The position numbers were made by a program, and so were the translations under genes. 64,000 nucleotides of DNA from Escherichia phage PNJ1809-36. A model generated the notes under the pieces. The model did no database searches. It was given only the letters and a program-made list of their open reading frames with translations, and was not told the origin of the DNA. Below, piece after piece: positions 42,124 to 63,478 of the stretch. The number at the start of each line of letters is the position of its first letter. The first letter of the stretch is position 1. The stretch lies in the sequence record MT944117.1. One strand, 5' to 3'.

Positions 42124-42486
42124 ATGAGCAAGCAAATCAATACTATCATGTTTAATCTGGTATCTTTCCGCGATGATATGAAAAATTTACCACGTGAAAC
42201 GGTTGATATTCATGTTTCAGCTTATCGCGCCCTTATTGATATGTTACCGCTAAAACGTGATCAACATGCCGCTAATATGATGCTTAATGCTATGCTTAAA
42301 AAGATGATTCAAACGGATCTTACTCTGGCGTATGAGTATCAAGGGCGCTTATATGCTACTTACAACAAGGCGGTACCTGGTCTGGGAAGTACCGAAGAGT
42401 TGCACGGCTTAAACTTGGATCAGAACACTTGGGATAGTATGCGCCGCGTTATGGTATGGGCCGAAAGCGGTAAAATTTACGAATAA
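42124..42486 (+). CDS. hypothetical protein (120 aa)
   Basis: ORF track. Confidence 0.45.
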   Translation: MSKQINTIMFNLVSFRDDMKNLPRETVDIHVSAYRALIDMLPLKRDQHAANMMLNAMLKKMIQTDLTLAYEYQGRLYATYNKAVPGLGSTEELHGLNLDQNTWDSMRRVMVWAESGKIYE

Positions 42487-42492
42487 AAACGG

Positions 42493-42552
42493 TTGACACT
42501 GTTTAAAATTCCGGTATAGTTTACCACATAGGGCGGGAAGTGGTTTCCCGCC
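42493..42552 (+). promoter_or_regulatory. promoter-hairpin cassette U6 (TTGACA-16-TATAGT)
   Basis: Hairpin gggcgggaaGUGGUuucccgcc. Confidence 0.6.
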
Positions 42553-42574
42553 AACAATGAAAAAGGTTATCATC

Positions 42575-42940
42575 ATGGCTATTAATATTAATGTTTCCTC
42601 TTATGCTACCCTGGCTAACACGGCTAAAATTGAATTATCCAGCATTGAGGCGGTGCATATTAGCGCCCGTCGCTGGTTTCAACAGTCCTACGGTAACACA
42701 TATTTTTCTTTAATGGTTGACGTTGAGATCGGCGGTAAACTGATCGAGGTGGTTAACGTTCCGTTTCAATATGGCTATGGTGATCATTTTGATACCGTCG
42801 CCCTGGAAGAATTTAGCAAGGTTATCAACCTTGAGGGCAAGGAATTTTCACGCGGCGCGTATCTTTCCCGTTTTTGCCGTGACAATGGGATCACTGTATA
42901 CAGTCATGCAAGCGATGTTAAACGTAAAAAAGATCTATAA
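42575..42940 (+). CDS. hypothetical protein (about 121 aa)
   Basis: ORF track 42557..42940 trimmed to second ATG (MAININ) by analogy with 43447. Confidence 0.4.
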   Translation: MAININVSSYATLANTAKIELSSIEAVHISARRWFQQSYGNTYFSLMVDVEIGGKLIEVVNVPFQYGYGDHFDTVALEEFSKVINLEGKEFSRGAYLSRFCRDNGITVYSHASDVKRKKDL

Positions 42941-42946
42941 AAAGCA

Positions 42947-43008
42947 TTGACAGCACGAATAAAAAGAGTAAACTGTATTACATAGAGAGCGGGAACACTT
43001 CCCGCCTC
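42947..43008 (+). promoter_or_regulatory. promoter-hairpin cassette U7 (TTGACA-16-TAAACT)
   Basis: Hairpin gcgggaaCACuucccgc. Confidence 0.6.
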
Positions 43009-43029
43009 ACTGAAAAAGAGAGAAAAATC

Positions 43030-43269
43030 ATGGCTAAATCTAAAATGTACAACGGTCACAAAAACAAAACTCATTGGAATGTAAGCCTGTGGATTAATAA
43101 CGATGAGGGATTGTATCGGTTTGCATTGGGATTGATCAATGAGTGCGGTAATAAAGATCAGGCGGCTGATTTAATGTGCTACCGTTTGAAACAGGATGGA
43201 ATCACTACAACGCCAGACGGCTTTAAGTATAGTAAAACTGCAATCCGCGCCGCTATGGTTGGAATGTAA
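43030..43269 (+). CDS. hypothetical protein (79 aa)
   Basis: ORF track. Confidence 0.45.
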   Translation: MAKSKMYNGHKNKTHWNVSLWINNDEGLYRFALGLINECGNKDQAADLMCYRLKQDGITTTPDGFKYSKTAIRAAMVGM

Positions 43270-43282
43270 AGGAGACATAAAA

Positions 43283-43363
43283 ATGAAACATCGTTCGACC
43301 TATCTCACAAAACGTTTTAGCTTAGATCATAAATTGGGCTATTACGGAAGAAATAGAAAATAA
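43283..43363 (+). CDS. possible 26-aa peptide
   Basis: AAGGAGACATAAAA then ATG; MKHRSTYLTKRFSLDHKLGYYGRNRK; very short. Confidence 0.2.
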   Translation: MKHRSTYLTKRFSLDHKLGYYGRNRK

Positions 43364-43364
43364 T

Positions 43365-43424
43365 TTGACAACGTTTAAAATTAGTGTAAGATGTATCACA
43401 TAGGGCGGGAAGTGGTTTCCCGCC
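43365..43424 (+). promoter_or_regulatory. promoter-hairpin cassette U8 (TTGACA-16-TAAGAT)
   Basis: Hairpin identical to U6. Confidence 0.6.
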
Positions 43425-43446
43425 AACAACAGAGAGATTAAAGATT

Positions 43447-43674
43447 ATGGCTATCAATATTGTTCGTGTATCCGGCACCGTTGGCAGTTCCCAGGTTGTA
43501 GCAGTTGTAACAAACAAAAAGATTAATGATGTATGTGAGATCTTGAATAAGTGGGCTATTGCTAATTTTGGAGAATATGCGAGCGTCGAGTACATCGAAT
43601 CCTACCAGGTGCCAACCATCAGCCTAACCGATCTCAACGTTGATCGCCTGTTATGCCTGGATGAATTAATCTGA
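43447..43674 (+). CDS. hypothetical protein (75 aa)
   Basis: ORF track. Confidence 0.45.
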   Translation: MAINIVRVSGTVGSSQVVAVVTNKKINDVCEILNKWAIANFGEYASVEYIESYQVPTISLTDLNVDRLLCLDELI

Positions 43675-43683
43675 AAAAGATTG

Positions 43684-43741
43684 TTGACACGGGAAAGAAA
43701 AAGAGTAAACTGTATTACGTAGGGCGGCAATGGTGCCGCTC
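43684..43741 (+). promoter_or_regulatory. promoter-hairpin cassette U9 (TTGACA-16-TAAACT)
   Basis: Hairpin identical to U1. Confidence 0.6.
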
Positions 43742-43764
43742 ACAACAGAAGAGAGATTATCACG

Positions 43765-43980
43765 ATGGCTAATATCCGCACACTGTTAAAAAATGCAAGT
43801 CAAGTTTTATTTTCAGATGACGAGTATTTCAATAAAGACATTACGGGCGTAAAAAGTCTTAAAGATGTAAAGGATGTAATAGGTATTCGCGGATCTTTAC
43901 GTAAGGGCGATTACTACGGTAACAAGGTGCAATATAAACTGTCAAAAGATTATGATTTTACTTTGACAATTATCAACTAA
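43765..43980 (+). CDS. hypothetical protein (71 aa)
   Basis: ORF track. Confidence 0.45.
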   Translation: MANIRTLLKNASQVLFSDDEYFNKDITGVKSLKDVKDVIGIRGSLRKGDYYGNKVQYKLSKDYDFTLTIIN

Positions 43981-43991
43981 GGGATCACAAA

Positions 43992-44150
43992 ATGAAAACT
44001 TGCCAATGTGGTAAAAAGTCTATCTCTGGTTTAAAACGTGGCGTTGCTCTTTGTCAATACCACTATAACGCTCAAACGTGGGGTAAGCAGTGGGCGGATC
44101 AGGTGGAAGAGGCAAAGAAAGAAAATATAAAAGTAGTTGCAAAGAAATAA
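43992..44150 (+). CDS. hypothetical small Cys-containing protein (52 aa)
   Basis: Manual translation MKTCQCGKKSISGLKRGVALCQYHYN... Confidence 0.35.
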   Translation: MKTCQCGKKSISGLKRGVALCQYHYNAQTWGKQWADQVEEAKKENIKVVAKK

Positions 44151-44199
44151 AAATAGAGTAAACTGTATTACATCAAGGCGGCGGAATGGTCCACCGCCT
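44137..44199 (+). promoter_or_regulatory. promoter-hairpin cassette U10 (TTGCAA-16-TAAACT)
   Basis: Hairpin ggcggcggAAUGGUccaccgcc. Confidence 0.5.
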
Positions 44200-44222
44200 A
44201 ACAAAGAGAAGAGGAAAATATC

Positions 44223-44390
44223 ATGATCACTTTCGCTACCCGTGAAGCCGCTCGCAACGTTGCACGTAAAGTTAACGCCGCCAACTTGGGCGCTACGCTT
44301 AAAGCCCCTGTAAAAGATGAATCAGGAAAATGGATCTTACCTGGTCTGCGTCATGCTGACAAGTTAGGTACTTTAAGCCTTAAAAAATAA
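44223..44390 (+). CDS. hypothetical basic protein (55 aa)
   Basis: Manual translation MITFATREAARNVARKVNAANLG... Confidence 0.4.
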   Translation: MITFATREAARNVARKVNAANLGATLKAPVKDESGKWILPGLRHADKLGTLSLKK

Positions 44391-44393
44391 TCG

Positions 44394-44431
44394 TTGACTT
44401 TTCGTTATAGCGCCTTATAATGGGCGCTATA
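44394..44431 (+). promoter_or_regulatory. promoter U11 (TTGACT-16-TATAAT) with -10 inside the loop of a 9-bp palindrome
   Basis: tatagcgccTTATAATGggcgctata. Confidence 0.5.
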
Positions 44432-44464
44432 GAGAAGAGAAACCACTATTAACAAGGAAACATC

Positions 44465-44686
44465 ATGATTACTTTTGCTATTGTCGCCGTTGTTGCTGGT
44501 CAGGTTTACGTAAACGAGACATTTACTACAGAAGACAAGGCCGCAGGAGATATAACCGCCGTTTACAATGAGTGCAAGGCAGTAGAAAGGATGTTATCGC
44601 CTTGTATGCTAATGAGTGAACGTCAGGATGGGATAACAGTATTTACTAACATTGAAACAGGGTACCAAATGGTAGTAACAAAATAA
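44465..44686 (+). CDS. hypothetical protein (73 aa)
   Basis: ORF track. Confidence 0.45.
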   Translation: MITFAIVAVVAGQVYVNETFTTEDKAAGDITAVYNECKAVERMLSPCMLMSERQDGITVFTNIETGYQMVVTK

Positions 44687-44689
44687 AGC

Positions 44690-44747
44690 TTGACACGTAT
44701 TTAATTTTCAGTAAACTGTTACACGTAGGGCGGGAATAGTTCCCGCT
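44690..44747 (+). promoter_or_regulatory. promoter-hairpin cassette U12 (TTGACA-16-TAAACT)
   Basis: Hairpin gggcgggaAUAGUUcccgcu. Confidence 0.6.
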
Positions 44748-44764
44748 AAAAAGAGAGAAAGACC

Positions 44765-45118
44765 ATGAAAGCACAAAATGCAATTAAAGAGTACATCCTT
44801 GCCGCTATCGATTTTAATGATTATGGTATTACAACCGAAAAAGAGAAGATCGCGGAATTGATGCGCCGTTTTAATTCCGAGTACTGGTACCCTGATAACC
44901 AATCACGTTTTAATTATAGTATTGTTAAAGCACTTGCATCATGGTTACAAGGTTTGCCATCAGATATTAATATCGCTTTCGAATATTGGGAAATTGATCG
45001 CTTGTTAACATCCTGGGGATACATTAAAGAGAATAGCAGCGATGATAAAATCCAACGAGAAAGGGAAAATTATTGGCTTTATATTGCAGGCGTGATCCTT
45101 GCTTGCTCTTATGAATGA
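44765..45118 (+). CDS. hypothetical protein (117 aa)
   Basis: ORF track. Confidence 0.45.
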   Translation: MKAQNAIKEYILAAIDFNDYGITTEKEKIAELMRRFNSEYWYPDNQSRFNYSIVKALASWLQGLPSDINIAFEYWEIDRLLTSWGYIKENSSDDKIQRERENYWLYIAGVILACSYE

Positions 45119-45124
45119 TAAACC

Positions 45125-45178
45125 TTGACAATTTTACAAAACAGTTTAAATTAATAATATAGCGGCAATGGTGCCGCT
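45125..45178 (+). promoter_or_regulatory. promoter-hairpin cassette U13 (TTGACA, AT-rich -10 region)
   Basis: Hairpin agcggcAAUGGUgccgcu; exact -10 register ambiguous. Confidence 0.5.
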
Positions 45179-45197
45179 CATATAAAGAGGAAACAAA

Positions 45198-45344
45198 ATG
45201 AATACATCTAATCGCGCAGAAAAAATTCAATCTTCCAAGATCCGCAAGGCCTGGAATGAGGAAGTGATCCGCAAAGGCGACAAGCGCAATAAAACAAAGC
45301 GCGGGAAGAGTGACAAATATAATTGGATGGATTTAGAGAATTAA
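45198..45344 (+). CDS. hypothetical basic protein (48 aa)
   Basis: Manual translation MNTSNRAEKIQSSKIRKAWNEEVIRKG... Confidence 0.4.
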   Translation: MNTSNRAEKIQSSKIRKAWNEEVIRKGDKRNKTKRGKSDKYNWMDLEN

Positions 45345-45350
45345 CATAAC

Positions 45351-45378
45351 AAGGGCGCACCAAGCGCCCTTTCTTTTT
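45351..45378 (+). terminator. intrinsic terminator, copy 1 of a duplicated 28-mer
   Basis: aagggcgcACCAAgcgcccuu followed by UCUUUUU; same sequence at 50806..50833. Confidence 0.7.
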
Positions 45379-45399
45379 ACATGTAGAGGATAAACAAAA

Positions 45400-45585
45400 A
45401 TGACTTTAAACGAGCTTAAAACAGCCTATAACGCAACATTAAAAATAGCCGTGCGTTACCGTGACGAATACGGTTTTATTGCGCAGGGCGTGATCCTGGG
45501 CTTTTCTGACGATGGTTTGATCTATGTTGATGCACATCACAACAAGGTTAAACTTGAAAACGTCATTAGCATAAAATATCTTTAA
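45400..45585 (+). CDS. hypothetical protein (61 aa)
   Basis: ORF track. Confidence 0.4.
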   Translation: MTLNELKTAYNATLKIAVRYRDEYGFIAQGVILGFSDDGLIYVDAHHNKVKLENVISIKYL

Positions 45586-45591
45586 AAGTGG

Positions 45592-45651
45592 TTGACACCA
45601 TAACCGGACCTGTTAAACTGTATTACATCAGGCGGGGAATAGTTCCCCACC
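45592..45651 (+). promoter_or_regulatory. promoter-hairpin cassette U14 (TTGACA-16-TAAACT)
   Basis: Hairpin ggcggggaAUAGuuccccacc. Confidence 0.55.
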
Positions 45652-45670
45652 ATACAAAAAGGTAAATATT

Positions 45671-45877
45671 ATGATCACCGCAAAACAAGAAAAAATCATT
45701 ATCGACGTTGCAGCCGTTGCCGCTATTGCTATTATCGGTACCTACTATGACACCGCGCGTCCTTCCTCCTTGCATGAGATCGCCGCCGTTGCATCAGTTG
45801 GCGTGCTGTTTTACGTTGGTAAACGTTATTTATCACCAATGATTAACAAGCTGACACCGTGGAAAAATAAAGGTTGA
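45671..45877 (+). CDS. small membrane protein (68 aa)
   Basis: ORF track; hydrophobic segments. Confidence 0.45.
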   Translation: MITAKQEKIIIDVAAVAAIAIIGTYYDTARPSSLHEIAAVASVGVLFYVGKRYLSPMINKLTPWKNKG

Positions 45878-45932
45878 TCCTGTTTTATATTGTGTTATAG
45901 TTATCGTGTAGGGCGGCAATGGTGCCGCGCCC
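45874..45932 (+). promoter_or_regulatory. promoter-hairpin cassette U15 (TTGATC-16-TATAGT)
   Basis: Hairpin gggcggcAAUGGUgccgcgccc. Confidence 0.5.
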
Positions 45933-45948
45933 CTTTGAGGATGCAATC

Positions 45949-46233
45949 ATGAGTAAAGCTAACACCGTGCTAATGTTTTCCCTGATTAATGATCCCGCTT
46001 ACTTGTCCAACATGACGCAGGAGGGTAACACATTAACGGCAACATTCACCAATAAGCTTGACCGAGTGATCATCATCTCACTGAAAACAGTTAGTAAAGG
46101 CTTTTACTCGTTAGCTTATCATTGGATCACTGATACCGATGAGACAAGCCAGGACTATAGCGCCCCTTTCCCTGAATCAATGGCACGGGAGATCATCGCC
46201 GCCGTTGTAAATGATGGTTTGTTTACTGCATAA
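45949..46233 (+). CDS. hypothetical protein (about 94 aa)
   Basis: ORF track 45919..46233 trimmed; the track start is the AUG inside the hairpin loop. Confidence 0.45.
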   Translation: MSKANTVLMFSLINDPAYLSNMTQEGNTLTATFTNKLDRVIIISLKTVSKGFYSLAYHWITDTDETSQDYSAPFPESMAREIIAAVVNDGLFTA

Positions 46234-46251
46234 AATAATTTAGAAAAAGGC

Positions 46252-46308
46252 TTGCAATCATTTTGAGATAGTGTATATTTAATTCATAGGGCGGCGGGAA
46301 TAGTTCCC
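46252..46308 (+). promoter_or_regulatory. promoter-hairpin cassette U16 (TTGCAA-16-TATATT)
   Basis: Hairpin gggaaUAGuuccc with 5' gggcggc extension. Confidence 0.5.
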
Positions 46309-46331
46309 AAAGCAAACGAGAGGATTACACG

Positions 46332-46451
46332 ATGAGCAAGTACACAGTAGAATACACGGTAGAGAATCCGGTAGTATCCGAAGGTAAAAAGATGACATTT
46401 GCCATCAGTATAATCGCTTTCGTTGTCACTATCTTATCAATCATCTTATAA
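46332..46451 (+). CDS. small membrane-anchored protein (39 aa)
   Basis: Manual translation MSKYTVEYTVENPVVSEGKKMTFAISIIAFVVTILSIIL. Confidence 0.35.
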   Translation: MSKYTVEYTVENPVVSEGKKMTFAISIIAFVVTILSIIL

Positions 46452-46461
46452 GGTGCACACC

Positions 46462-46623
46462 ATGAAAATAACAGACATTATCAAAGAGATCGCCCTTGCC
46501 GCTGGCGTTGAAGTCGAGGAAGTGATCGCGCTCAATCTTACAGAAAACGATCTGCGCAACTATGAAGCGGAAAGCGTGAAAGCAAGCGGCGCGGTCCTGG
46601 TATATGATCCGGCTAACAAGTAA
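46462..46623 (+). CDS. hypothetical protein (about 53 aa)
   Basis: ORF track 46423..46623 trimmed to ATG with AAGGTG SD. Confidence 0.4.
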   Translation: MKITDIIKEIALAAGVEVEEVIALNLTENDLRNYEAESVKASGAVLVYDPANK

Positions 46624-46632
46624 GGGGATAAC

Positions 46633-46743
46633 ATGAATCCGAAAGATATGCAAGCATGGAAAGGGTACGACGATCTAAGCGCCTTGCGCAATAAGTCAAG
46701 CCGTAACCTTAGACGGTTGGAAGCAAAGAAAAAGAAAAAATAG
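46633..46743 (+). CDS. possible basic peptide (36 aa)
   Basis: Manual translation MNPKDMQAWKGYDDLSALRNKSSRNLRRLEAKKKKK. Confidence 0.3.
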   Translation: MNPKDMQAWKGYDDLSALRNKSSRNLRRLEAKKKKK

Positions 46744-46744
46744 T

Positions 46745-46802
46745 TTGACAAGTCCGCGTAGTCTGATAATATGTATCTTGTAGCGCGGCAATGGTGCCGC
46801 TC
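46745..46802 (+). promoter_or_regulatory. promoter-hairpin cassette U17 (TTGACA-16-TAATAT)
   Basis: Hairpin gcgcggcAAUGGUgccgcuc. Confidence 0.6.
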
Positions 46803-46821
46803 ACAAGAAGAGAGAAAAATC

Positions 46822-47106
46822 ATGAAAATTACAAAAAGCCTAACTAATTATGCAGCACGTCGCGGATTATGCTTAACCGTTGAAAACTTAGGGAAAGAAG
46901 ACTTTTTGTGTTTTTGGGAGCTTGAGAATGATTGCGAGTGGATGTTTTCTTATTCTATCTGCGAAGATCAAAACGGTTGTTTGTTAACCTGGCGCGGTAA
47001 TATCTATTTACCGGAAGAAATTAAAGAAGAGTTACCAGGTACGATCATGACAGAGAGACAGCTTAAGGAAGTGATCAATTTTGTAGGGCAAAACATTAAA
47101 AAATAA
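46822..47106 (+). CDS. hypothetical protein (about 94 aa)
   Basis: ORF track 46771..47106 trimmed to ATG. Confidence 0.45.
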   Translation: MKITKSLTNYAARRGLCLTVENLGKEDFLCFWELENDCEWMFSYSICEDQNGCLLTWRGNIYLPEEIKEELPGTIMTERQLKEVINFVGQNIKK

Positions 47107-47107
47107 T

Positions 47108-47170
47108 TTGACAGTAGGCAAACAACGTAGTAAAGTTTATTACATAGAGCGGCGGAATGGTCCACCGCTC
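47108..47170 (+). promoter_or_regulatory. promoter-hairpin cassette U18 (TTGACA-17-TAAAGT)
   Basis: Hairpin gagcggcggAAUGGUccaccgcuc. Confidence 0.6.
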
Positions 47171-47191
47171 ACAACAGAAGAGAAACAAATC

Positions 47192-47362
47192 ATGATCCCG
47201 ACTATGTTTTATGTATCGCGCAAAGGTCACAATATTTTTTGGTCTGAAGATTTAAATGAAGCTATGACGTTTGCCCGTGATCGTGTTGCTATCGGTGGCG
47301 TTAACATCACCGTAACCGATGAAAATGGCATTGAATACTATAACGGCGACGATGAAGAATAA
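47192..47362 (+). CDS. hypothetical protein (about 56 aa)
   Basis: ORF track 47108..47362 trimmed; the track start is the -35 TTG. Confidence 0.4.
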   Translation: MIPTMFYVSRKGHNIFWSEDLNEAMTFARDRVAIGGVNITVTDENGIEYYNGDDEE

Positions 47363-47369
47363 TTAATGA

Positions 47370-47390
47370 GGCGGGGGAGTATTCCCCGCC
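47370..47390 (+). other. intercistronic GC hairpin without promoter
   Basis: ggcggggGAGUAUUccccgcc between the stop at 47362 and the next SD. Confidence 0.45.
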
Positions 47391-47409
47391 GTCAATAAAG
47401 AGGTAAATC

Positions 47410-47679
47410 ATGAAAATATCATTAGACGTTGCAATCAAGGCCATCGAATCTGGTTACATCCTGGTAAAAGATGATAAGGCTAAAATAGTGCATCATGTTA
47501 ACAAGGAAACAGGTGAAAGCATGATCACATATAAAGCCGCCTACTTTCTCCAATCAGTAGCAGATCCGCGCGTACAACGCCAGGTTACGGCGGCTATTGC
47601 TAAAAAATTATGTGCTTTACAGGGTACAAGTTTTAACGAGATCGCCCCGTGTTTTGAGTGGTCAAGCTTGAAAAAATAA
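47410..47679 (+). CDS. hypothetical protein (89 aa)
   Basis: ORF track. Confidence 0.45.
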   Translation: MKISLDVAIKAIESGYILVKDDKAKIVHHVNKETGESMITYKAAYFLQSVADPRVQRQVTAAIAKKLCALQGTSFNEIAPCFEWSSLKK

Positions 47680-47680
47680 T

Positions 47681-47742
47681 TTGACAACAATTATAAATCG
47701 GGTAGAATGTATTTCGTAGGGCGGGGCAATAAGGCAACGCCC
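47681..47742 (+). promoter_or_regulatory. promoter-hairpin cassette U19 (TTGACA-16-TAGAAT)
   Basis: Hairpin gggcg-(14-nt loop)-cgccc. Confidence 0.5.
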
Positions 47743-47760
47743 ATTAATGAGGGTAGAATC

Positions 47761-47865
47761 ATGTTAGAGAAAATTTTCACGGTCGTAGTAGTGGGCCTGG
47801 CGTTATCGGTTGGAGTGGTTGCGACTATGGCTAACATGATCCTATCTTCCCACGGTATCGGCTAA
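47761..47865 (+). CDS. small hydrophobic peptide (34 aa)
   Basis: Manual translation MLEKIFTVVVVGLALSVGVVATMANMILSSHGIG. Confidence 0.3.
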   Translation: MLEKIFTVVVVGLALSVGVVATMANMILSSHGIG

Positions 47866-47879
47866 AAGAGAGACACAAC

Positions 47880-48266
47880 ATGAAAACAGAAATCATTATT
47901 GAAATCATCAACGGCTATAAAGAAGCCTTTATTTTTGCTGAATCAGCAAGGGATCATGAAGGTAATTTTATTGATAACTTAGACGATTATGATTTTTCTC
48001 CTAGCGCGGACGAACGGATCGCCCAGGATGTAACAGCCTTTATTAATGCTAATCTTGCCGCTATCTCTGAGGCAATGAGCGACGGCGCAACAGCCAACCA
48101 GATCGGGAATGATTTACATTTTACCCGTAACAGTCACGGCGTAGGCTTTTGGGATCGCCCTGAAATATACACCACTAACACAGCCAACCGCCTAACCAAT
48201 GCAGCTAAGTTTATGCCGAACGTGTCGGCTTACATTGGTGAAGATAATTTGATTTATATTGAATAA
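47880..48266 (+). CDS. hypothetical acidic protein (128 aa)
   Basis: ORF track. Confidence 0.45.
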   Translation: MKTEIIIEIINGYKEAFIFAESARDHEGNFIDNLDDYDFSPSADERIAQDVTAFINANLAAISEAMSDGATANQIGNDLHFTRNSHGVGFWDRPEIYTTNTANRLTNAAKFMPNVSAYIGEDNLIYIE

Positions 48267-48272
48267 AAAGTA

Positions 48273-48329
48273 TTGACACAGATCGCCAGTGTGCTAATAT
48301 TTACCACGTAGGGCGGCAATGGTGCCGCC
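48273..48329 (+). promoter_or_regulatory. promoter-hairpin cassette U20 (TTGACA-16-TAATAT)
   Basis: Hairpin gggcggcAAUGGUgccgcc (no wobble pair). Confidence 0.6.
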
Positions 48330-48347
48330 GATAATGAGGAAAGTAAA

Positions 48348-48647
48348 ATGGAAACTATCGCTATTGTTACCGTAGAAAAACTGGTTGTTGGTGATGTATT
48401 CGCGTTAATGGTGCCTAACAGCAGCAAGCTGGGCGCTTATGAAGTAATGGATCATAAAAATGAATCATTTGGCGACGGTTGCACAATGGCGGTAAAATCC
48501 TTAAAGGATGGAATCATCCGTCAAGCTAATTGGCACAAAGGGAATCAAGTCGGATTAATATCAGCTAATTTCTTGCCAGAAGAGCAAACGTTAGACCAAC
48601 TATCAGGCGGTAAGACGTTAGCCGAACTACTGGAAACAGCGATCTAA
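48348..48647 (+). CDS. hypothetical protein (99 aa)
   Basis: ORF track. Confidence 0.45.
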   Translation: METIAIVTVEKLVVGDVFALMVPNSSKLGAYEVMDHKNESFGDGCTMAVKSLKDGIIRQANWHKGNQVGLISANFLPEEQTLDQLSGGKTLAELLETAI

Positions 48648-50805: not shown

Positions 50806-50833
50806 AAGGGCGCACCAAGCGCCCTTTCTTTTT
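50806..50833 (+). terminator. intrinsic terminator, copy 2 of the duplicated 28-mer
   Basis: aagggcgcACCAAgcgcccuu followed by UCUUUUU. Confidence 0.7.
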
Positions 50834-51038
50834 GCCCGAATAATGTTGATAGATTCCGCCTATGAAAAACCGACACAGAACAAAACTGAATAGATCGCGG
50901 TATCGAGCTAATCAACCATTAAACGAATAACCATACCTCCCAGGGTAACAGGTTGTTAGAGAGCCATTTAGAGCGGTTAAAATCGATCAACAACCAACAA
51001 CAAACCATCAAAAACACCCTTTTACCTCCTTTCTAGTG

Positions 51039-51058
51039 CAATGATAACCATTATCATC
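51039..51058. promoter_or_regulatory. Fur-box-like operator C
   Basis: gcAATGATAAcCATTATCatc. Confidence 0.45.
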
Positions 51059-51383
51059 TATCCATGTTTATCTATGCAATATAAGTGCATAACTATAATG
51101 TTGATAATAGTTCGCAACAACTAACTAACCAACAACCTAAAACAATAAGCAAACTAATCATAATCAAAGGAATAATAGCAAGATGATTGATAACGACAAA
51201 CAATCAAACCATGATGAATACTAAGCAAGATAACGATAACACGACAAAACAACCAACTAACGAACAATAACAAACGAAACCATTAAAATAACAACTATTA
51301 GCAAAATAGTGCCTGAATGAAATCATTACAAAACGAATCATTCACAGGATCATCATTAGCACGCTATGCCGGACACATAGCGA

Positions 51384-51511
51384 GCTAATAATAAGCCAAC
51401 TACACCCCAACAATCATAACCATCGGTGATGGTTATTTCTTGTTACTGCGTAGCTTGCAATAATTGCAAGCGTAATGACGCTTACACTTATTGCGCTGGC
51501 TTATTATTAGC
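51384..51511. repeat. nested inverted repeats
   Basis: Outer arms gctaataataagccaac / gctggcttattattagc; inner palindromes aaccatcGGTgatggtt, cttgcaataattgcaag, agcgtaatgacgct. Confidence 0.55.
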
Positions 51512-51826
51512 ATTATATGTAATTACCAAGATCATAACATTAGCGCAATAACAATAATCATTGTGGTAATTACAAGATGAAATAATCGCTATCGCTCAAA
51601 GATTATTAGCAAGATGAATAATTGCACGTAGCAACATGAGCGAATAGCGACAGGTTGCATAGTGTGCACATAGATGTACACGCAGTGTATAAACATACAG
51701 GAAAATAAAGGCTAATCTTTTGGGGGCGAATACTATCGCGTAGCGATATGTTGAGCATCTTCTCTTAAACGTAAATAAAATCAGAAAATTCTTGATTTAT
51801 TTTAATTTTTATGTTAATAAACGTTT

Positions 51827-51845
51827 AAATAATAATCATTCTCAT
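51827..51845. promoter_or_regulatory. Fur-box-like operator D
   Basis: taAATAATAATCATTcTCat. Confidence 0.35.
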
Positions 51846-52006
51846 ATGAATAATAGTCTGCTTGTCATGAGCGGGATTAGTTGACAATGTTCCGTCATAT
51901 GATGAGGTTGCCAAACCATTGATAAATAAGTGTTTGTGTGATTTATAATCAAGCGGCCCACCTTGTCGCTATGTTGGCATGAGCCTTGCATAAGTCATTG
52001 AATACG

Positions 52007-52025
52007 AATGATAATTATTCTCATT
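52007..52025. promoter_or_regulatory. Fur-box-like operator E
   Basis: AATGATAATtATTcTCATT. Confidence 0.4.
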
Positions 52026-52284
52026 CGCATGATATTTGGGAATTGTCGCTGCGTGGACCTGACGGCCCGAAAATTCGCGTTAAGCACTTCTTACGTATGT
52101 GCCATGATTTTTGCCATATGATATTGATTCTACTAGATATTCTTGCCATGATTGCCATGAAACAGGGTGTCCCGAAATAATCTCTCCCTGTAGATATTTT
52201 GGGTTACTTTTTATACAAGAGTGGGGTGTCAAAAATAATTGGTATATATGGGATAATTGATAGGAATCCCCTATGATAATTCGA

Positions 52285-52313
52285 TTGTAATTCCCTAAGA
52301 TTGATCGTATGAT
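52285..52313 (+). promoter_or_regulatory. candidate sigma70-like promoter (TTGTAA-17-TATGAT)
   Basis: About 55 nt upstream of the ATG at 52367. Confidence 0.35.
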
Positions 52314-52366
52314 GTTGGTGATTGATGATTGCCATGAAAGATGGCTAACGATGAGAGGAGATTATC

Positions 52367-53296: not shown

Positions 53297-53754
53297 GACA
53301 ATTCACTATACTGGCAGCTTATGTGCAATGTGTTCACGATTATGTTAGTGCTCATACAGGTTTGCTGGAAGTTAATAGTAAAATTGAAGGCAATATGGGT
53401 ACTGTCTATGTGCAACATACTTTATCTAACGTGCCGTATAAAGTGTTCACTGTTGTAGCTGCCGATTACAATCGTGTAGATGTGCGTTTCTTGGATCATA
53501 ATTTTCGTAACGCACTAGATAATATCGAAGATTATCTTCCCGTGAAACCTTTGTCATTTCCACCGAGTCGTGCAAATAATGTAGTGACAAACCTTAATGA
53601 AAGGAATGTGGCTATGCACAAAAAAGTCCGTCAACTGAAAACGCTGATGGAAATGCAAGAAGAGATTGAAAAAGAACTGAAAGAAGATTTTGGTATGCTT
53701 CCAAAAGACGCTTTGAAATGGTATGATGAACTAGGAGGAGAAAGTTATGAATAA
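53293..53754 (+). CDS. hypothetical protein (153 aa)
   Basis: ORF track. Confidence 0.45.
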   Translation: MRQFTILAAYVQCVHDYVSAHTGLLEVNSKIEGNMGTVYVQHTLSNVPYKVFTVVAADYNRVDVRFLDHNFRNALDNIEDYLPVKPLSFPPSRANNVVTNLNERNVAMHKKVRQLKTLMEMQEEIEKELKEDFGMLPKDALKWYDELGGESYE

Positions 53755-53777
53755 AGAGACTACTGTATATTTAGTGA

Positions 53778-53921
53778 CTAAGAACACCCCAGGTTGGAAT
53801 CAGTGCTCAACACCTCGAAAAAATTCTCTCCAATGATAGCAGCAATACTGTTATCAAAGGTAGAATATAGTCGCATATAATCTTCATCCTGGAAACGGTA
53901 GACATGACCTTCTTTAAACAT
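53778..53921 (-). CDS. antisense-oriented small protein (about 47 aa)
   Basis: ORF track 53778..54002 trimmed to ATG with AAGGAG SD; only leftward gene in this block. Confidence 0.35.
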   Translation of the reverse strand: MFKEGHVYRFQDEDYMRLYSTFDNSIAAIIGENFFEVLSTDSNLGCS

Positions 53922-54005
53922 TGTATGCTCCTTCTTGTTCAAGAGTGAAAGGAATGATTTCACCATAGCTGTATCGCATAGCATCAACTTCTGCTTCTGC
54001 ACGTT

Positions 54006-54389
54006 GTGCTAGTTCTAGTGTTGCACAGATTTTATATGGGGTTGTTGAGCACTGATGCAAATGGTAATATCTTGTCAATTGTTGTGATAGGGAGAGACGG
54101 TATTATCACTGCTAGTGATGGGGATCGTTACATAATCAATTCTGCTCATATAGATTATTTTGTTGACGGTGGTATTCGTGGTGGTCGTGGAAAACCCCAA
54201 GAAGAACCTGTTGATACAACAAAAGAAGAGTGGTATGTTGTAATGACTGATGACACCTGTATTTCTGGATTTGAAAGTTATGAAGAAGCTTTGAAAGAAG
54301 CAGCAGAGCATAAAATGGCTAATCCTACAGAAGAGGTTGAAGTTTATAAACGTTTGGTTGTTGCTACCATCGGCGTATCTTTTGTTTAA
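54006..54389 (+). CDS. hypothetical protein (up to 127 aa, start uncertain)
   Basis: ORF track; no convincing SD at GTG 54006 or ATG 54036. Confidence 0.35.
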   Translation: MLVLVLHRFYMGLLSTDANGNILSIVVIGRDGIITASDGDRYIINSAHIDYFVDGGIRGGRGKPQEEPVDTTKEEWYVVMTDDTCISGFESYEEALKEAAEHKMANPTEEVEVYKRLVVATIGVSFV

Positions 54390-57368: not shown

Positions 57369-57559
57369 TGTTTAGTTTCTTGGTAATTGTTATGGTTGTT
57401 CTTTTCGCGGCATGGCTTTGGGATTTTGACCCAGGAGCAGCGCAGCAAAGAGCTACAGACTGGAAAGAACAGTGTATTGTGCTCAAACATGAACGAAATG
57501 CGGAGAAATTTCTTGACCTGGAGTGTGATCGCCTTGTAAGATACAAGCAAGATAAATAA
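57359..57559 (+). CDS. small membrane-anchored protein (about 66 aa)
   Basis: ORF track trimmed to ATG with AGGAGGA SD. Confidence 0.4.
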   Translation: MPIVFSFLVIVMVVLFAAWLWDFDPGAAQQRATDWKEQCIVLKHERNAEKFLDLECDRLVRYKQDK

Positions 57560-60044: not shown

Positions 60045-60317
60045 ATGAATAAAGATCGGTTTCTTTCTTTAGTCGCGGAAGCTCCTTTTGATGTTCTTGG
60101 GGTGAGATTATGGAAAGACAGAAACTATGGGTTAGATGTTCAAACATACTCTCTTTGGTTGGTTGGGGAGCACAGTTTAGATGAAAGCTTGTGCATGGGT
60201 AGGGATTCTCGTTCCCTCTGTTTAAAGTTCAGAAGCTTAGAACGCGCAAACAAAGAGCAAGAAAAACTAACGAGGTGGCTAAATGAAAACAAGCGCAAGG
60301 TTGATGGAGTTTTATAA
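60045..60317 (+). CDS. hypothetical protein (90 aa)
   Basis: ORF track. Confidence 0.45.
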   Translation: MNKDRFLSLVAEAPFDVLGVRLWKDRNYGLDVQTYSLWLVGEHSLDESLCMGRDSRSLCLKFRSLERANKEQEKLTRWLNENKRKVDGVL

Positions 60318-60609
60318 AATTTATTTAGCATGGATTGATGTTGGTGCTCCTGATGGTAAACCTTTTCGGCGGGATTGCGGTTTGTGTGCCAACTTATTCG
60401 ACTATGTGCACGCGGATGGCTACAATCCCCTTATAACAACCTTGTCAGATGAAATGCACGCACAGTTTTACCACAAAGGGTTGAGTCAAGAATTACCCTT
60501 CAATGAGAACTACGATGCATATGTCTTAGAATCAGATGCAGAGGTATGTCACCTGAATGTGGACAGGATTAATTGGGTAAGAGATCGTATTGCAGAGGAG
60601 GATGAATAA
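60283..60609 (+). CDS. paralog family C member 3 (108 aa)
   Basis: ORF track; FYKIYLAWIDVGAP...GLCANL...PF...INWVRDR. Confidence 0.5.
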   Translation: MKTSARLMEFYKIYLAWIDVGAPDGKPFRRDCGLCANLFDYVHADGYNPLITTLSDEMHAQFYHKGLSQELPFNENYDAYVLESDAEVCHLNVDRINWVRDRIAEEDE

Positions 60610-60836: not shown

Positions 60837-61051
60837 TCATGTGGATTGTGCGTCTTAAGTATGATGGCAAGTTTCCGTGGGAGAAAGATGTTTGTGCTTG
60901 TGATTCGGCAGCACATGCCAAAGCAGCGGGTCAGGCAGTAGTTGACATGTATAACAACACTTCCGTTGATCCAGAAATGGCAGGTGTTACAATGAGCATG
61001 TTCACTTACTATTCTTTTGAGGTTTACTATCATGAAGGAGAGTGGAAATGA
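60833..61051 (+). CDS. hypothetical protein (72 aa)
   Basis: ORF track. Confidence 0.4.
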   Translation: MIMWIVRLKYDGKFPWEKDVCACDSAAHAKAAGQAVVDMYNNTSVDPEMAGVTMSMFTYYSFEVYYHEGEWK

Positions 61052-61368
61052 GCGAAGAACTATTAACATTTTACCGCACGTATTTGGCATGGTTGGAAGC
61101 TGGTGCTCCTGAAGGCGAACCGTTCACCCGTTGCACAGGTTTGTGCTCGAACCTCTATCATTTTTACGATATGGGTGAAAGCGAACGATACGAACCCGTA
61201 CTGGATGAAATGCATGAGCAGTTCTACCGCAAAGGTTTGGTTATGGTGTTGCCTTTCAACAGTAATTTTGGAAAGTACACCTTAGAAGCGGAAAAAAGCC
61301 GCTGTCACTTGAATGTGGATCGTGTGAACTGGGTAAAAGAACGTGTAGCAGAAGAAATAATTGGTTGA
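61048..61368 (+). CDS. paralog family C member 4 (about 106 aa)
   Basis: ORF track trimmed to ATG with AAGGAGAG SD; FYRTYLAWLEAGAP...GLCSNL...PF...VNWVKER. Confidence 0.5.
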   Translation: MSEELLTFYRTYLAWLEAGAPEGEPFTRCTGLCSNLYHFYDMGESERYEPVLDEMHEQFYRKGLVMVLPFNSNFGKYTLEAEKSRCHLNVDRVNWVKERVAEEIIG

Positions 61369-62736: not shown

Positions 62737-62748
62737 ATAATAAATACC

Positions 62749-62777
62749 TTGACAAGTGTTTATTCGTTTTGTAAAGT
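62749..62777 (+). promoter_or_regulatory. sigma70-like promoter (TTGACA-17-TAAAGT) for recombinase gene
   Basis: About 30 nt upstream of the ATG at 62807. Confidence 0.5.
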
Positions 62778-62806
62778 GGGAATACAGCAATGGTTTAGGA
62801 GTGGTT

Positions 62807-63478
62807 ATGAAAAAGTTTGTTGTTTACAGTCGTCTTTCTAAACAGAAAAAAGGTGAGGCACAATATGGTATGGAGAGCCAAGAGAATGATATCCGTTACT
62901 TCTTAGACTCTGTGCCTGATGCGGAAGTTATTGGTCAATTTTCTGAATACTATTCGGGTAAGGGCGATTGGAAGCAACGTAAGGAACTGGTTAAAGCGGT
63001 TGAAATGTGTAAAGCTACCGGAGCAACTTTATTGGTAGCTAAAGTTGACCGCTTGGGTCGTAACAACGCCTCTGTAGCAACTCTTCTAGAGATGATCGAT
63101 GTTAAGATAGCCATCATGCCAGACGCAGATAAAATGGTTATACAGCTTCTGTCTGTTCTGGCTGAACAAGAAGTTAGAGGTATTGCTGATCGTATTAAAA
63201 AGGGTCTTGCTGTAGCAAAAAGCAAAGGTGTTTTATTAGGCAGTGCTAATCCTAAAACTGCCGCTGCACGTAGAAAAGGGAAAATGGAATACAACTCTGT
63301 TAAAGCAGACGCTTTTGCAGAGACATTCCGTGAACGCTTGGAGATCCTTAGAGATTTAAATACACCTTACAAAACTATTGCTGAAAAATTCAATAGTAAG
63401 AAAATAGCAACAGCACGTGGTGGTAAATGGGATGCTAAAACTGTTTCTCGTTTGTGTGCCAGACTGAACATTAAATAG
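62807..63478 (+). CDS. small serine recombinase (resolvase/invertase family)
   Basis: ORF track 62756..63478 trimmed to ATG; N-terminal VVYSRLSKQKKGE resembles the catalytic-Ser motif; VAKVDRLGRN. Confidence 0.6.
   Translation: MKKFVVYSRLSKQKKGEAQYGMESQENDIRYFLDSVPDAEVIGQFSEYYSGKGDWKQRKELVKAVEMCKATGATLLVAKVDRLGRNNASVATLLEMIDVKIAIMPDADKMVIQLLSVLAEQEVRGIADRIKKGLAVAKSKGVLLGSANPKTAAARRKGKMEYNSVKADAFAETFRERLEILRDLNTPYKTIAEKFNSKKIATARGGKWDAKTVSRLCARLNIK

Follow-up and report, generated by a model that had tools for sequence, protein, structure and literature searches.

What a small serine recombinase does in a virulent phage is the question raised by a locus near the right end of the 64,000-nucleotide stretch of Escherichia phage PNJ1809-36 DNA (MT944117.1) that was analyzed here (hereinafter, the window). 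An earlier note, made from the sequence alone, described a 223-aa resolvase/invertase-family protein with its own promoter at the end of a rightward gene block of a virulent-type genome, and proposed that it could drive an invertible segment, resolve replication multimers or be a remnant of a mobile element. The genome type was recognized correctly: the window shares 99.1% identity with ASO2A and tuntematon, two phages of the genus Phapecoctavirus, and on this evidence represents Phapecoctavirus, that is, a phAPEC8-like virulent myovirus of ~150 kb, from a genus that has been described as lytic (PMC10282059). The gene is already known in that some records annotate it as a DNA invertase, resolvase or serine recombinase; our survey of the literature on the Phapecoctavirus gene yielded annotation-level remarks only. 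To our knowledge, the subfamily has never been studied biochemically, and we know of no integration in this phage group.

Recombinase genes are red flags in the screening of lytic phages for therapy, which is why this gene comes up in several papers on Phapecoctavirus; for such screening, it would be useful to know that the enzyme is conserved and apparently active and comes without integrase architecture, a host copy or an attachment site. Furthermore, a serine recombinase that does not vary among dozens of strictly lytic phages, and occupies two loci within one subfamily, points to unexplained replication or conflict biology.

Gene organization and domain architecture

The recombinase gene (62807..63478, plus strand; homolog of phAPEC8_0049, ASO2A_048 and phi92 gene 053) runs from an ATG at 62807 to the end of a stop codon at 63478 and translates into 223 aa. 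A ribosome-binding site, AGGAG (62797..62801, plus strand), can be read directly 5 nt upstream of the ATG, and a sigma-70-type promoter match (62749..62777, plus strand) consists of TTGACA (62749-62754), a 17-nt spacer and TAAAGT (62772-62777). This match scores 10/12 in the promoter scan, which yielded 9 sites over 2.7 kb where 7.0+/-2.3 would be expected, so that, taken alone, the match is not above chance. The promoter is retained in ASO2A and Schickermooser, the phiWec181 version is TTGACA-17-TAAAAT, and a TTGACA/TTGACT-17-TAnnnT or CATACT match precedes the homologous gene by 30-40 nt in all contexts that were read (ASO2A, Schickermooser, phiWec181, phi92, Klebsiella phage phi1_175008, Vibrio phage 1.170.O and ICP1). 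The next ORF starts at 63487, 8 nt past the recombinase stop codon, with no terminator between the two. Thus, the promoter reported in the earlier note is present and recurs in comparable form next to the homologs, but it appears to head a small operon rather than to be private to the gene. Nor does the gene close a rightward block: in ASO2A, same-strand genes run for ~6 kb further, up to convergent terminators at ~23.4 kb, and, judging from this relative, the apparent block end is the edge of the window. Upstream of the gene, the non-coding DNA is only ~70 bp long.

The family assignment made in the earlier note is borne out by profile searches: the protein matches the Pfam Resolvase domain PF00239 over residues 5-142 (E=5e-18, 66 bits, with a cut-off of 23.3 bits) and PHROG 125, labeled "DNA invertase" (E=3e-32). 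Alignment, an AF2 model and a profile search against the PDB delineate a catalytic domain with a long E-helix at residues 1-145 (62807..63241, plus strand). In the model (pLDDT 89.8), a mixed alpha/beta core is followed by the E-helix at residues 109-139; Foldseek matches it to Sin, gamma-delta, TP901-1 and Bxb1, with a probability of 1.00 each, and the best-scoring solved catalytic domain in the profile search is that of Gin (4m6f, 9e-18), with gamma-delta at 8e-16. The nucleophile, Ser11 (codon 62837-62839), is part of the Y-x-R-x-S motif, present as Y7-S-R9-L-S11; Y7, R9 and S11 are invariant in our alignment of 37 family members (~220-aa proteins, 31-78% identical to the window protein), as are Q25, R58, D81, R82 and R85. 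As in Tn3 and gamma-delta resolvases, the catalytic residues align one to one: R58, D81, R82 and R85 correspond to the region of "KLDRLGRD", and the active-site Arg/Asp cluster of gamma-delta consists of R45, D67, R68 and R71. All catalytic residues are invariant in a family that diverges to ~30% identity, which would hardly be expected if catalysis were lost, and, on the strength of sequence and model, the protein is apparently an active, catalytically competent small serine recombinase.

The C-terminal part (residues 146-223; 63242..63475, plus strand) is a predicted helical DNA-binding domain, with helices at 149-172, 175-183, 188-197 and 210-219. In the small resolvase/invertase group (Tn3, gamma-delta, Hin, Gin), this position is occupied by an HTH_7-type helix-turn-helix of ~40 aa, and Pfam gave no HTH_7 match in this region of the phage protein. 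The C-terminal 78 aa align only with large serine recombinases: the profile alignment extends to the Bxb1 and SPbeta integrases as far as residue 202-216, the top Foldseek match of the model is Bxb1 (9iu2_A), and PF07508 scores 18.2 bits over residues 187-216, below its cut-off of 21.1 bits and covered only at profile positions 19-48 of 102. In the 37-sequence alignment, the linker after helix E reads LG.a.P and lacks a GR arm, which we take to be the large-serine-recombinase type. Thus, sequence and model suggest that this domain resembles the N-terminal part of the "recombinase domain" of large serine recombinases, and that the subfamily (~220 aa) combines a resolvase-type catalytic domain with a short, predicted DNA-binding domain of that kind. 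In relatives of the phiWec181 type, the C-terminal domain is swapped, with 37% identity compared to 95% in the N-terminal domain.

This architecture does not fully coincide with that of any characterized group. The protein shares with the large serine recombinases (Bxb1, phiC31, SPbeta SprA/YokA, A118) the C-terminal helices and a "G..W....V..iL" motif that matches the start of the recombinase domain; those enzymes, however, comprise ~450-700 aa, with a complete recombinase domain and a zinc-ribbon domain with a coiled coil, whereas the phage protein stops at residue 223 without these elements and thus would lack the attP/attB directionality apparatus. An integrative life style, with attP beside the gene and prophage copies in hosts, does not fit either, given that none of the 5,426 complete E. 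coli genomes searched has a DNA match and that the genus is described as lytic. With Gin, Hin, Cin and Pin, the protein has in common that it is phage-borne, the closeness of its catalytic domain to Gin, and a candidate dyad with the 12-2-12 geometry known from hix and gix sites, but it comes without HTH_7, an adjacent invertible segment or alternative tail-fiber ends. A possible autoregulatory site over the promoter is reminiscent of Tn3 and gamma-delta; unlike in those systems, there is no transposase, no room for a three-subsite res of ~120 bp, and the C-terminal domain is different. The Bacteroides master invertase Mpi gives a near-full-length NCBIfam match (residues 22-193) that is weak, at 22.6 bits far below the 272-bit cut-off. 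Finally, IS607-type serine transposases start with a MerR-like HTH and have the catalytic domain at the C-terminus, whereas here the catalytic domain is N-terminal (residues 5-142).

Conservation and distribution in phages and plasmids

In 62 GenBank phage records, the recombinase has an identity of at least 99% (100% among the matches listed), and the phages with near-identical proteins were obtained on a variety of E. coli, Shigella and Klebsiella hosts. Compared to two close relatives, the gene shows 3-6 synonymous and 0 non-synonymous differences whereas the neighboring genes accumulate non-synonymous ones, a pattern of sequence change indicating that the gene is under strong purifying selection. 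Together with the invariance of the catalytic residues, such conservation contradicts the option of a remnant of a mobile element.

Within Phapecoctavirus, the gene is present as a single copy at one fixed position, with no copy-number polymorphism, and only in the record of Schickermooser does the copy appear to be disrupted. The locus differs in the phi92-like phages (Justusliebigvirus) and a Klebsiella phage, with the flanking genes staying collinear. Only two positions are found across the subfamily, so movement of the cassette is rare. The neighbors vary by lineage and contain no Pfam domain other than DUF7202 upstream. In ICP1, the gene is present in only 8 of the 85 records, in a variable accessory block of one outbreak lineage, and the ORF is inserted precisely between a resident promoter and the gp39 ribosome-binding site. 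Relatives are also found in Bacteroides and Parabacteroides phages, and further homologs in prophages and plasmids; a search of 5,426 complete E. coli genomes with the gene and its upstream region returned no DNA match. The ends of the tuntematon and EP57 records near the gene, considered as physical termini, fall in a short tandem repeat and thus are assembly breaks.

Full-length homologs, with 35-40% identity, are encoded in 109 plasmid records, 92 of them non-mobilizable, and several of these plasmids are replicons of only 5.8-6.4 kb. In Paracoccus, Leisingera and Marinovum plasmids, the homolog adjoins parA and, in pLM20P5, repA as well; among the modules published for pLM20P5 is a multimer resolution system, a label that is an in-silico annotation (PMC4447125). 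Directly upstream of the homolog, the Leisingera plasmid has a 10/12 dyad (P=0.003), and a Klebsiella plasmid has a 34-bp palindrome centered 50 nt before the ATG. Collectively, these associations suggest that the subfamily, with its resolvase core and truncated recombinase-domain-like module, appears to serve as the resolvase of many small plasmids. The phage protein is like these uncharacterized plasmid proteins (pLM20P5, pMaD11, and small Klebsiella and Synechococcus plasmids) in its length of ~220 aa and full-length homology at 35-40%, as well as in its gene being solitary, directly preceded by a dyad and without a second site in the replicon. Serine recombinases that resolve plasmid multimers include ParA of RK2/RP4, Sin and beta; Sin, the only one of the three that was compared, matches the catalytic domain alone. 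The phage differs from such plasmid systems in being a virulent replicon of ~150 kb without a par or plasmid-type rep module, and in having only ~70 bp of non-coding DNA upstream of the gene.

Candidate recombination sites and an inversion at 53.8 kb

The best candidate for a recombinase-binding or crossover site, hypothetical at this stage, is an imperfect 12-2-12 dyad of 26 bp at 62739..62764, AATAAATACCTT GA CAAGTGTTTATT, with 9/12 symmetric positions, centered on the -35 hexamer of the recombinase promoter, 55 nt upstream of the ATG. With up to 3 mismatches allowed, the window has no second copy of the dyad, and there is none in the composite genome; nor do the window and the composite contain a second copy of the 70-nt region upstream of the gene. 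Of 130-nt stretches drawn at random from the window, ~5.5% contain a dyad that is as good (P about 0.055), and 2 of the 25 promoters have a dyad over the -35 hexamer. In phiWec181, with its swapped C-terminal domain, the same promoter region carries a different 9/12 dyad, and the dyads upstream of the phi92 and Klebsiella phage genes are not significant (P about 0.35). As a recombinase site, the sequence-derived dyad is a candidate that is suggestive only.

The earlier note suggested a search for inverted repeats beyond the window, and none that are long were found in the 152-kb composite genome; neither the composite nor the window contains long inverted or direct repeats that could form a site pair, the repeats present being terminator hairpins, promoter cassettes and chance 12-15-bp repeats only. 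No three-subsite array near the gene and no set of promoter invertons turned up, and Rfam returned nothing above noise for the ORF-free 1.5 kb. Several specific candidates were considered and rejected. A Mu-like tail-fiber inversion is not supported: all tail-fiber genes are co-oriented and the relatives are collinear over the 25 kb of the tail-fiber region, each of the 30 best-matching Phapecoctavirus records listed being collinear in a single place. For the 24-nt inverted repeat at 51375/51497, which flanks 98 bp, all 72 records show collinearity. In the promoter-plus-hairpin units at 40-48 kb, stem sequences differ while the pairing is kept, suggesting structural (RNA or terminator-like) elements rather than protein-recognition sites. 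The prophage homologs (in P. aeruginosa and in a prophage that also carries a large serine recombinase), taken as models of an adjacent invertible segment, show no convincing flanking inverted repeats.

The only inversion that we found, 8.7 kb upstream of the recombinase gene and unique to this genome, involves a 230-bp segment, 53813-54042 (53799..54056 with its repeats), that has the opposite orientation in all relatives compared. Its breakpoints lie exactly at perfect 14-bp inverted repeats, ATCAGTGCTCAACA (53799-53812) and TGTTGAGCACTGAT (54043-54056), and in silico re-inversion restores full collinearity with TSP7_1 and P3322. Across a 1-kb stretch around the segment, 0 of 110 matching GenBank records are collinear, and among the 60 matches listed the remainder of the 1-kb query sits as a second place; in four records aligned directly, the segment is inverted, and the other orientation is likewise present in 6 of 6 further assemblies that were aligned. 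Of the positions in the left repeat copy, 7/14 agree in ASO2A, TSP7_1 and P3322 and 12/14 in tuntematon, 3A1 and L027, which have the closest allele, even though the recombinase is identical in ASO2A, TSP7_1, P3322, 3A1 and L027, and 99.6% identical in tuntematon. The inversion truncates two conserved early ORFs, with no swap of coding ends. Both base differences from the nearest allele make the repeat perfect, as could be expected from template switching at a quasi-palindrome. Searches of IMG/VR with junction-specific 28-mers in either orientation gave 0 matches, and a search for exact protein matches retrieved no entry for the ORFs that arise through the inversion. Because the repeat is not conserved, the inversion looks like a one-off event, and the recombinase probably does not use the segment as a programmed substrate. 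Thus, for the proposal in the earlier note that the enzyme drives an invertible segment, the searches identified no conserved substrate.

Possible roles of the recombinase

The role that we tentatively favor over the others is single-site resolution or circularization of phage DNA combined with autoregulation. The gene would probably be transcribed early by the host RNA polymerase, as suggested by its position inside the early-gene block and by the sigma-70-type promoter. The enzyme would use one cognate site per phage genome, given that the window and the 152-kb composite contain no plausible site pair and that the dyad, the best candidate for this site, is single-copy. Recombination of the resolution type could then occur between directly repeated copies of the site, such as would be present in circular multimers, concatemers or terminally redundant ends, with monomeric circles as the product, and the enzyme, when bound at the dyad over the -35 hexamer, would also act as a repressor of its own promoter. 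Tn3 and gamma-delta resolvases repress their own promoters at res. Among the three options of the earlier note, multimer resolution seems to us the best supported, by comparison with the plasmid homologs in rep/par backbones and by the single dyad, although the dyad is only marginally unusual, and those of phi92 and the Klebsiella phage are not significant. Several other observations argue against this role: it is not obvious why a phage that packages from concatemers should need multimer resolution, the ~70 bp upstream are too small for a three-subsite Tn3-type res of ~120 bp, and the gene is dispensable in ICP1. Moreover, a gene with different loci in sister genera looks more like an accessory gene than like one with a core role in replication.

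That the target is not phage DNA but that of the host, a prophage, a satellite or a competitor appears unlikely; the enzyme might flip or excise a defense locus, or bind or poison the att sites of large serine integrases. Predicted early sigma-70 expression in every lineage and the lack of a site pair in the phage genome are compatible with such a target, and the swapping of the DNA-binding domain next to a 95% identical catalytic domain is a pattern typical of conflict systems. The place of the ICP1 gene in a variable accessory block of one outbreak lineage is compatible with such a target as well. There is also a precedent, in Adi and the PLE2 Int, for a lytic phage that exploits serine-recombinase chemistry against a satellite (PMC9638900). 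All this is circumstantial, however; no DNA match was found in the E. coli genomes, and the invariance of the protein over many hosts argues against the tracking of a variable host target.

A broader version, which we regard as quite unlikely, is that the protein is an early weapon or genome-engineering tool. It would either direct an exchangeable DNA-binding domain of the large-serine-recombinase type against host, prophage or satellite DNA, for example, serine-integrase att sites or invertible defense loci, or rearrange, with relaxed specificity, the phage's own hyper-mosaic early region, in which case the 230-bp inversion at 53.8 kb would be a visible product.

It is improbable that the enzyme is a DNA invertase that flips a phage segment, with the inversion at 53.8 kb as one product, programmed or off-target. 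The affinity of the catalytic domain to Gin and the label of PHROG 125 are in line with an invertase; the inversion is real, given its precise breakpoints and the collinearity restored by re-inversion, and a 14-bp repeat is far too short for mis-assembly. Nevertheless, the presence of the other orientation in the relatives aligned implies that there is no switch at equilibrium, and the left repeat diverges in phages with an identical or near-identical recombinase. Known serine recombinases act on crossover sites of 24-30 bp that consist of two half-sites, whereas the two sites here share 14 bp only and neither is itself dyad-symmetric. Truncation of early ORFs without exchange of coding ends, base differences of the kind that template switching would produce, and the collinearity of the tail-fiber region in the best-matching relatives, and of the 51375/51497 repeat, also weigh against programmed inversion.

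There is similarly little likelihood that the gene is a selfish or moron-like mobile element that moves between phages with no benefit to them. The compact cassette of ~740 bp at different loci in Phapecoctavirus and in Justusliebigvirus and the Klebsiella phage, the precise insertion in ICP1 and the homologs in prophages and plasmids are in line with such a gene. However, in the genus, the gene has one fixed position and a single copy, disrupted apparently in one record only, the cassette junctions have neither terminal repeats nor target duplications, movement is rare, and the protein is more conserved than the products of the neighboring genes. A DNA-binding regulator that only represses or activates promoters, without recombination activity, would account for the dyad that overlaps the enzyme's own -35 hexamer, but is highly improbable, given that the serine nucleophile and all other catalytic residues are invariant across the family.

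An intact recombinase gene in a lytic phage

At the level of sequence, the analysis establishes an intact, selected serine recombinase gene with a predicted sigma-70-type promoter among the early genes of a lytic phage. Over its last 4 kb, the window shares 99.1% identity with Escherichia phages ASO2A and tuntematon and 95-99% with about 60 more Phapecoctavirus records; this genus of the Stephanstirmvirinae consists of phAPEC8-like myoviruses of ~150 kb that are described as lytic (PMC10282059), so that the virulent type assigned to the genome in the earlier note holds. The recombinase is a homologue of phAPEC8_0049 and ASO2A_048, and is labelled in GenBank as a hypothetical protein, DNA invertase, resolvase, serine recombinase or recombinase family protein, the adjoining gene being misannotated as an ABC transporter in some records. 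The gene is thus already known, with the correct family name in public records and a passing mention in the genus papers; added here are evidence of an active enzyme, a binding module like that of large serine recombinases and its swap between relatives, two alternative loci in the subfamily, a negative inverton search, a link to plasmid maintenance backbones and an inversion unique to this genome.

The ORF with the best start runs on the plus strand from ATG at 62807 to TAG at 63476-63478, preceded by an AGGAG ribosome-binding site (62797-62801), and encodes the 223-aa resolvase/invertase-family protein that the earlier note had described, with Pfam Resolvase (PF00239) covering residues 5-142 (E=5e-18). 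A simple promoter scan matched TTGACA-17-TAAAGT at 62749-62777 (+), and the span proposed previously extends exactly from the first base of this promoter-like hexamer to the stop codon. Because the scan count (9 sites against a shuffled expectation of 7.0+/-2.3) is not above chance, the case for a genuine promoter rests on conservation: the element is unchanged in ASO2A and in the related phage Schickermooser, reads TTGACA-17-TAAAAT in the relative phiWec181, and a TTGACA/TTGACT box is located 30-40 nt 5' of the homologue in phi92 (a Justusliebigvirus-type phage), a Klebsiella phage, Vibrio phage 1.170.O and ICP1. The downstream ORF begins 8 nt past the stop codon and no terminator was found between the two; therefore, the promoter heads a small operon and is not the recombinase's alone. 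The placement of the gene at the end of a rightward block turned out to be an artefact of the window edge, given that the same-strand early genes of ASO2A run for ~6 kb further, to convergent terminators near 23.4 kb.

When 5.8 billion proteins were searched, 93 clusters of homologues were recovered, nearly all of ~210-260 aa. Aligning 37 of these proteins, which are 31-78% identical to that of the window, showed Y7, R9, S11, Q25, R58, D81, R82 and R85 to be invariant, so that the catalytic serine, the presence of which had been left to be checked, is accounted for; the aligned positions of gamma-delta resolvase are Y6, R8, S10, R45, D67, R68 and R71. The AlphaFold2 model built on this alignment is confident (pLDDT 89.8) and has a catalytic alpha/beta core followed by a long E-helix (109-139) and, towards the C-terminus, four more helices. 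For the catalytic domain, a PDB profile search gave similar scores to Gin invertase (9e-18) and gamma-delta resolvase (8e-16). All codon differences in the gene, 6 from ASO2A and 3 from iGC_PHA_EC001, are synonymous; in the same comparisons, non-synonymous differences equal or outnumber synonymous ones in three of the four flanking genes, DUF7202 being the only exception. These numbers are small, yet they agree with the near-invariance of the protein, which shows 99% identity or more across 62 records (tblastn). From these comparisons and the model, we conclude that this is a putatively functional recombinase under purifying selection, and not the mobile-element remnant that had been considered, which is contradicted by the invariant catalytic residues and the purely synonymous changes.

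The Schickermooser copy (NC_048196, 1500-1830; equivalent to window 62807-63130) has six small deletions (1, 1, 7, 1, 2 and 7 nt) in the first ~220 nt of the gene, the remainder being almost identical to the window gene, and the record annotates just a 128-aa C-terminal ORF at this locus; either the copy is a pseudogene in nature, which would make the gene dispensable, or the deletions are a local cluster of sequencing errors.

The C-terminal half lacks an HTH_7 domain in the Pfam search. Residues 187-216 match the start of the Pfam Recombinase domain (PF07508) below threshold (18.2 bits compared to the 21.1-bit cut-off), past residue 156 the PDB profile search aligned the protein to large serine recombinases only (Bxb1 and SPbeta YokA), and Bxb1 is the best Foldseek match of the model. 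Where a large serine recombinase would continue with the remainder of the recombinase domain, a zinc ribbon and a coiled coil, the window protein ends. The protein thus combines the size of a small serine recombinase with a predicted DNA-binding module of the large-serine-recombinase type. This module is exchangeable between relatives: the phiWec181-type protein is 95% identical to the window protein in residues 1-145 but just 37% identical in 146-223, and nucleotide similarity between the genes stops at ~nt 434.

Candidate substrates and the possible role of the recombinase

No inverted or direct repeat pair resembling recombination sites was found in the window or in the 152-kb composite genome obtained by joining the window to ASO2A 17.5-105.8 kb, so the search for inverted repeats beyond the window, suggested in the earlier note, yielded no site pair. 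The tail-fibre genes share one orientation throughout, and tail-fibre inversion was rejected given that the Phapecoctavirus records listed are collinear over the 25-kb structural region. The 98-bp segment between the arms of a 24-nt inverted repeat (51375/51497) was likewise rejected as an inverton, with 72 of 72 records collinear.

The only candidate site adjoining the gene is a 12-2-12 dyad, AATAAATACCTT GA CAAGTGTTTATT (62739-62764; 9/12 symmetric positions), which is single-copy and centred on the -35 hexamer, 55 nt 5' of the ATG. An equally good dyad occurs, empirically, in 5.5% of 130-nt stretches of the window, and one of this quality lies across the -35 hexamer at 2 of 25 promoter-like sites. 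In phiWec181, with its different binding domain, a different 9/12 dyad is present in the same region (P=0.04); the upstream dyads of phi92 and the Klebsiella phage are not significant. The putative site is a lead and not a result.

Considering the family context and this single dyad, we tentatively propose that the recombinase acts in one-site resolution combined with autorepression. Each phage genome would carry one recombination site; where multimers, concatemers or terminal redundancy supply this site in direct repeat, recombination between the copies would release monomer circles, and the enzyme would repress its own promoter. Homologues with 35-40% identity were identified in 109 plasmid records (translated search); in 103 of these, the match spans 80% or more of the protein length. 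The homologue-bearing plasmids, 92 of which are non-mobilizable, include 5.8-6.4 kb replicons with five or six genes. The homologue adjoins parA in Paracoccus, Leisingera and Marinovum plasmids, and is located between repA and parA in the stretch of pLM20P5 read, a plasmid for which the authors' module list names a multimer resolution system (PMC4447125). Rhodobacterales plasmids share a conserved dyad, CGCACTTGCGTA AA TACGTAAATGCG, just 5' of the gene (10/12, P=0.003), and in a Klebsiella plasmid a 34-bp palindrome is centred 50 nt 5' of the homologue ATG.

That the target lies in non-phage DNA (host, prophage or satellite) seems unlikely. The lack of a site pair in the composite genome would fit such a target; against it, none of 5,426 complete E. 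coli genomes matches the recombinase gene at the DNA level. Prophage homologues are located at prophage ends or behind tail genes, with no clear invertible segments nearby.

We consider it improbable that the enzyme is an invertase whose product is a rearrangement seen at 53.8 kb, where window 53799-54040 aligns to ASO2A in reverse orientation. The inverted segment (230 bp, 53813-54042) is bounded at both ends by a perfect 14-bp inverted repeat (ATCAGTGCTCAACA, 53799-53812; TGTTGAGCACTGAT, 54043-54056), and its in silico re-inversion produces one collinear alignment to the related phages TSP7_1 (97.4%) and P3322. Not one of the 110 GenBank records that match here aligns collinearly with the window: the 60 of these that were listed have a second matching place, and the piece lies on the opposite strand in all four relatives aligned directly; the other records are collinear in the ASO2A orientation, and six further assemblies aligned, phAPEC8 included, also have the orientation other than that of the window. 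The breakpoints fall inside two conserved early ORFs, both truncated in the window, that are homologues of the 64-aa ASO2A_022 and a 151-aa TSP7_1 gene (PHROG 24303 and PHROG 3710 homologues; function not assigned). The right repeat copy is kept in 7 of 8 relatives read, whereas the left copy matches at 7/14 positions in ASO2A, TSP7_1 and P3322 and at 12/14 in the closest allele (tuntematon, 3A1, L027), so that its perfect form is confined to this genome; 11 perfect inverted repeats of at least 14 bp within 6 kb occur in the composite genome by chance. Against programmed inversion, the two sites have just 14 bp in common, neither is dyad-symmetric, the window's orientation is seen in this genome alone among more than 110 related ones, and the repeat is absent from relatives carrying the same recombinase. 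We think that these comparisons point to a one-off rearrangement rather than a programmed substrate. Template switching or short-homology recombination would account for it, and the same process would explain why each of the two differences from the nearest allele perfects the repeat; an off-target reaction of the recombinase is possible, and the inversion could be an escape or loss-of-function rearrangement.

There is also a small chance that this is a selfish mobile gene. The phi92 order lysozyme-PhoH-HslV-methyltransferase-gp055-gp054-[recombinase]-gp052-gp051-phosphatase-DprA is collinear with ASO2A 36.4-28.9 kb (minus strand; tblastx) except for the recombinase, which in ASO2A is at 16.3-17.0 kb, in the early rightward block; the Klebsiella member of the subfamily has the phi92 locus and phiWec181 the phAPEC8 locus. 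At the 'empty' site, ASO2A has nothing but a terminator and the ribosome-binding site that follows. Of 85 ICP1 records, 8 carry the homologue (those listed are 2017 DRC isolates), its ORF slotted exactly between the resident gp39 promoter and ribosome-binding site; compared to the ICP1 reference, the gp40-gp39 intergenic region of these 8 records (2317-4756 in 2017_DRC_82) has gained 342-aa and 182-aa genes plus the recombinase ORF, between flanks ~91% identical to the reference. The gene has moved between loci, but rarely: no terminal repeats or target duplications were found at the junctions examined, and in Phapecoctavirus it is present in one copy at a fixed position. A non-catalytic regulator is highly improbable for a protein with these invariant catalytic residues.

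Other features of the early region

The early region (39001-64000) is extremely mosaic: relatives that are 95-98% identical where aligned cover just 45-87% of the 25 kb, in 5-23 pieces, whereas the tail-fibre 25 kb is covered to at least 80% in one place by each of 63 records. At 40300-48400, at least 11 units form an array. Each has a promoter (TTGACA-17-TAAGAT/TAAACT), a GC hairpin ~10 nt on and, behind it, a ribosome-binding site and ATG; from unit to unit, the stems vary in sequence while the pairing is kept, and a window/ASO2A alignment breakpoint (48323) falls inside one unit. These units are similar to the 'promoter-early stem-loop' shuffling cassettes of T4-type phages. Five copies of a AATGATAA(C/T)CATT(A/C)TCAT-like palindrome (39610, 39668, 51040, 51828 and 52007) resemble the consensus of the E. 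coli Fur box, and iron-responsive control of early phage regions is a possibility.

The ~1.5 kb at 50830-52360 contain no credible ORF in a genome that is gene-dense elsewhere, and are conserved genus-wide and unannotated in every relative listed. This stretch is AT-rich and contains many short repeats, the 24-nt inverted repeat with its 98-bp interval (51375-51520) and, internally, a perfect palindrome, GCTTGCAATAATTGCAAGC; it has no Rfam match and may serve as an origin or pac region or encode a non-coding RNA.

A 28-nt unit, CCCAAAGCCATGCCGCGAAAAGAACAAC (57393-57428), occurs once in the window, whereas tuntematon has three tandem copies. Two records, those of tuntematon and EP57, begin or terminate at this unit, which therefore marks assembly breaks and not physical termini. 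Paralogous 108-aa early genes (60283-60609, 61042-61368 and around 57087; pVOG 7392 in the annotation of relatives) recur several times in the early block and, in relatives, also 3' of the recombinase. Finally, ASO2A 8104-8409 (window ~53620-53800 plus flank) shares 93% DNA identity with phi92 genes 001-003, much more than the two genera usually show, which points to a probable recent exchange between Phapecoctavirus and Justusliebigvirus.
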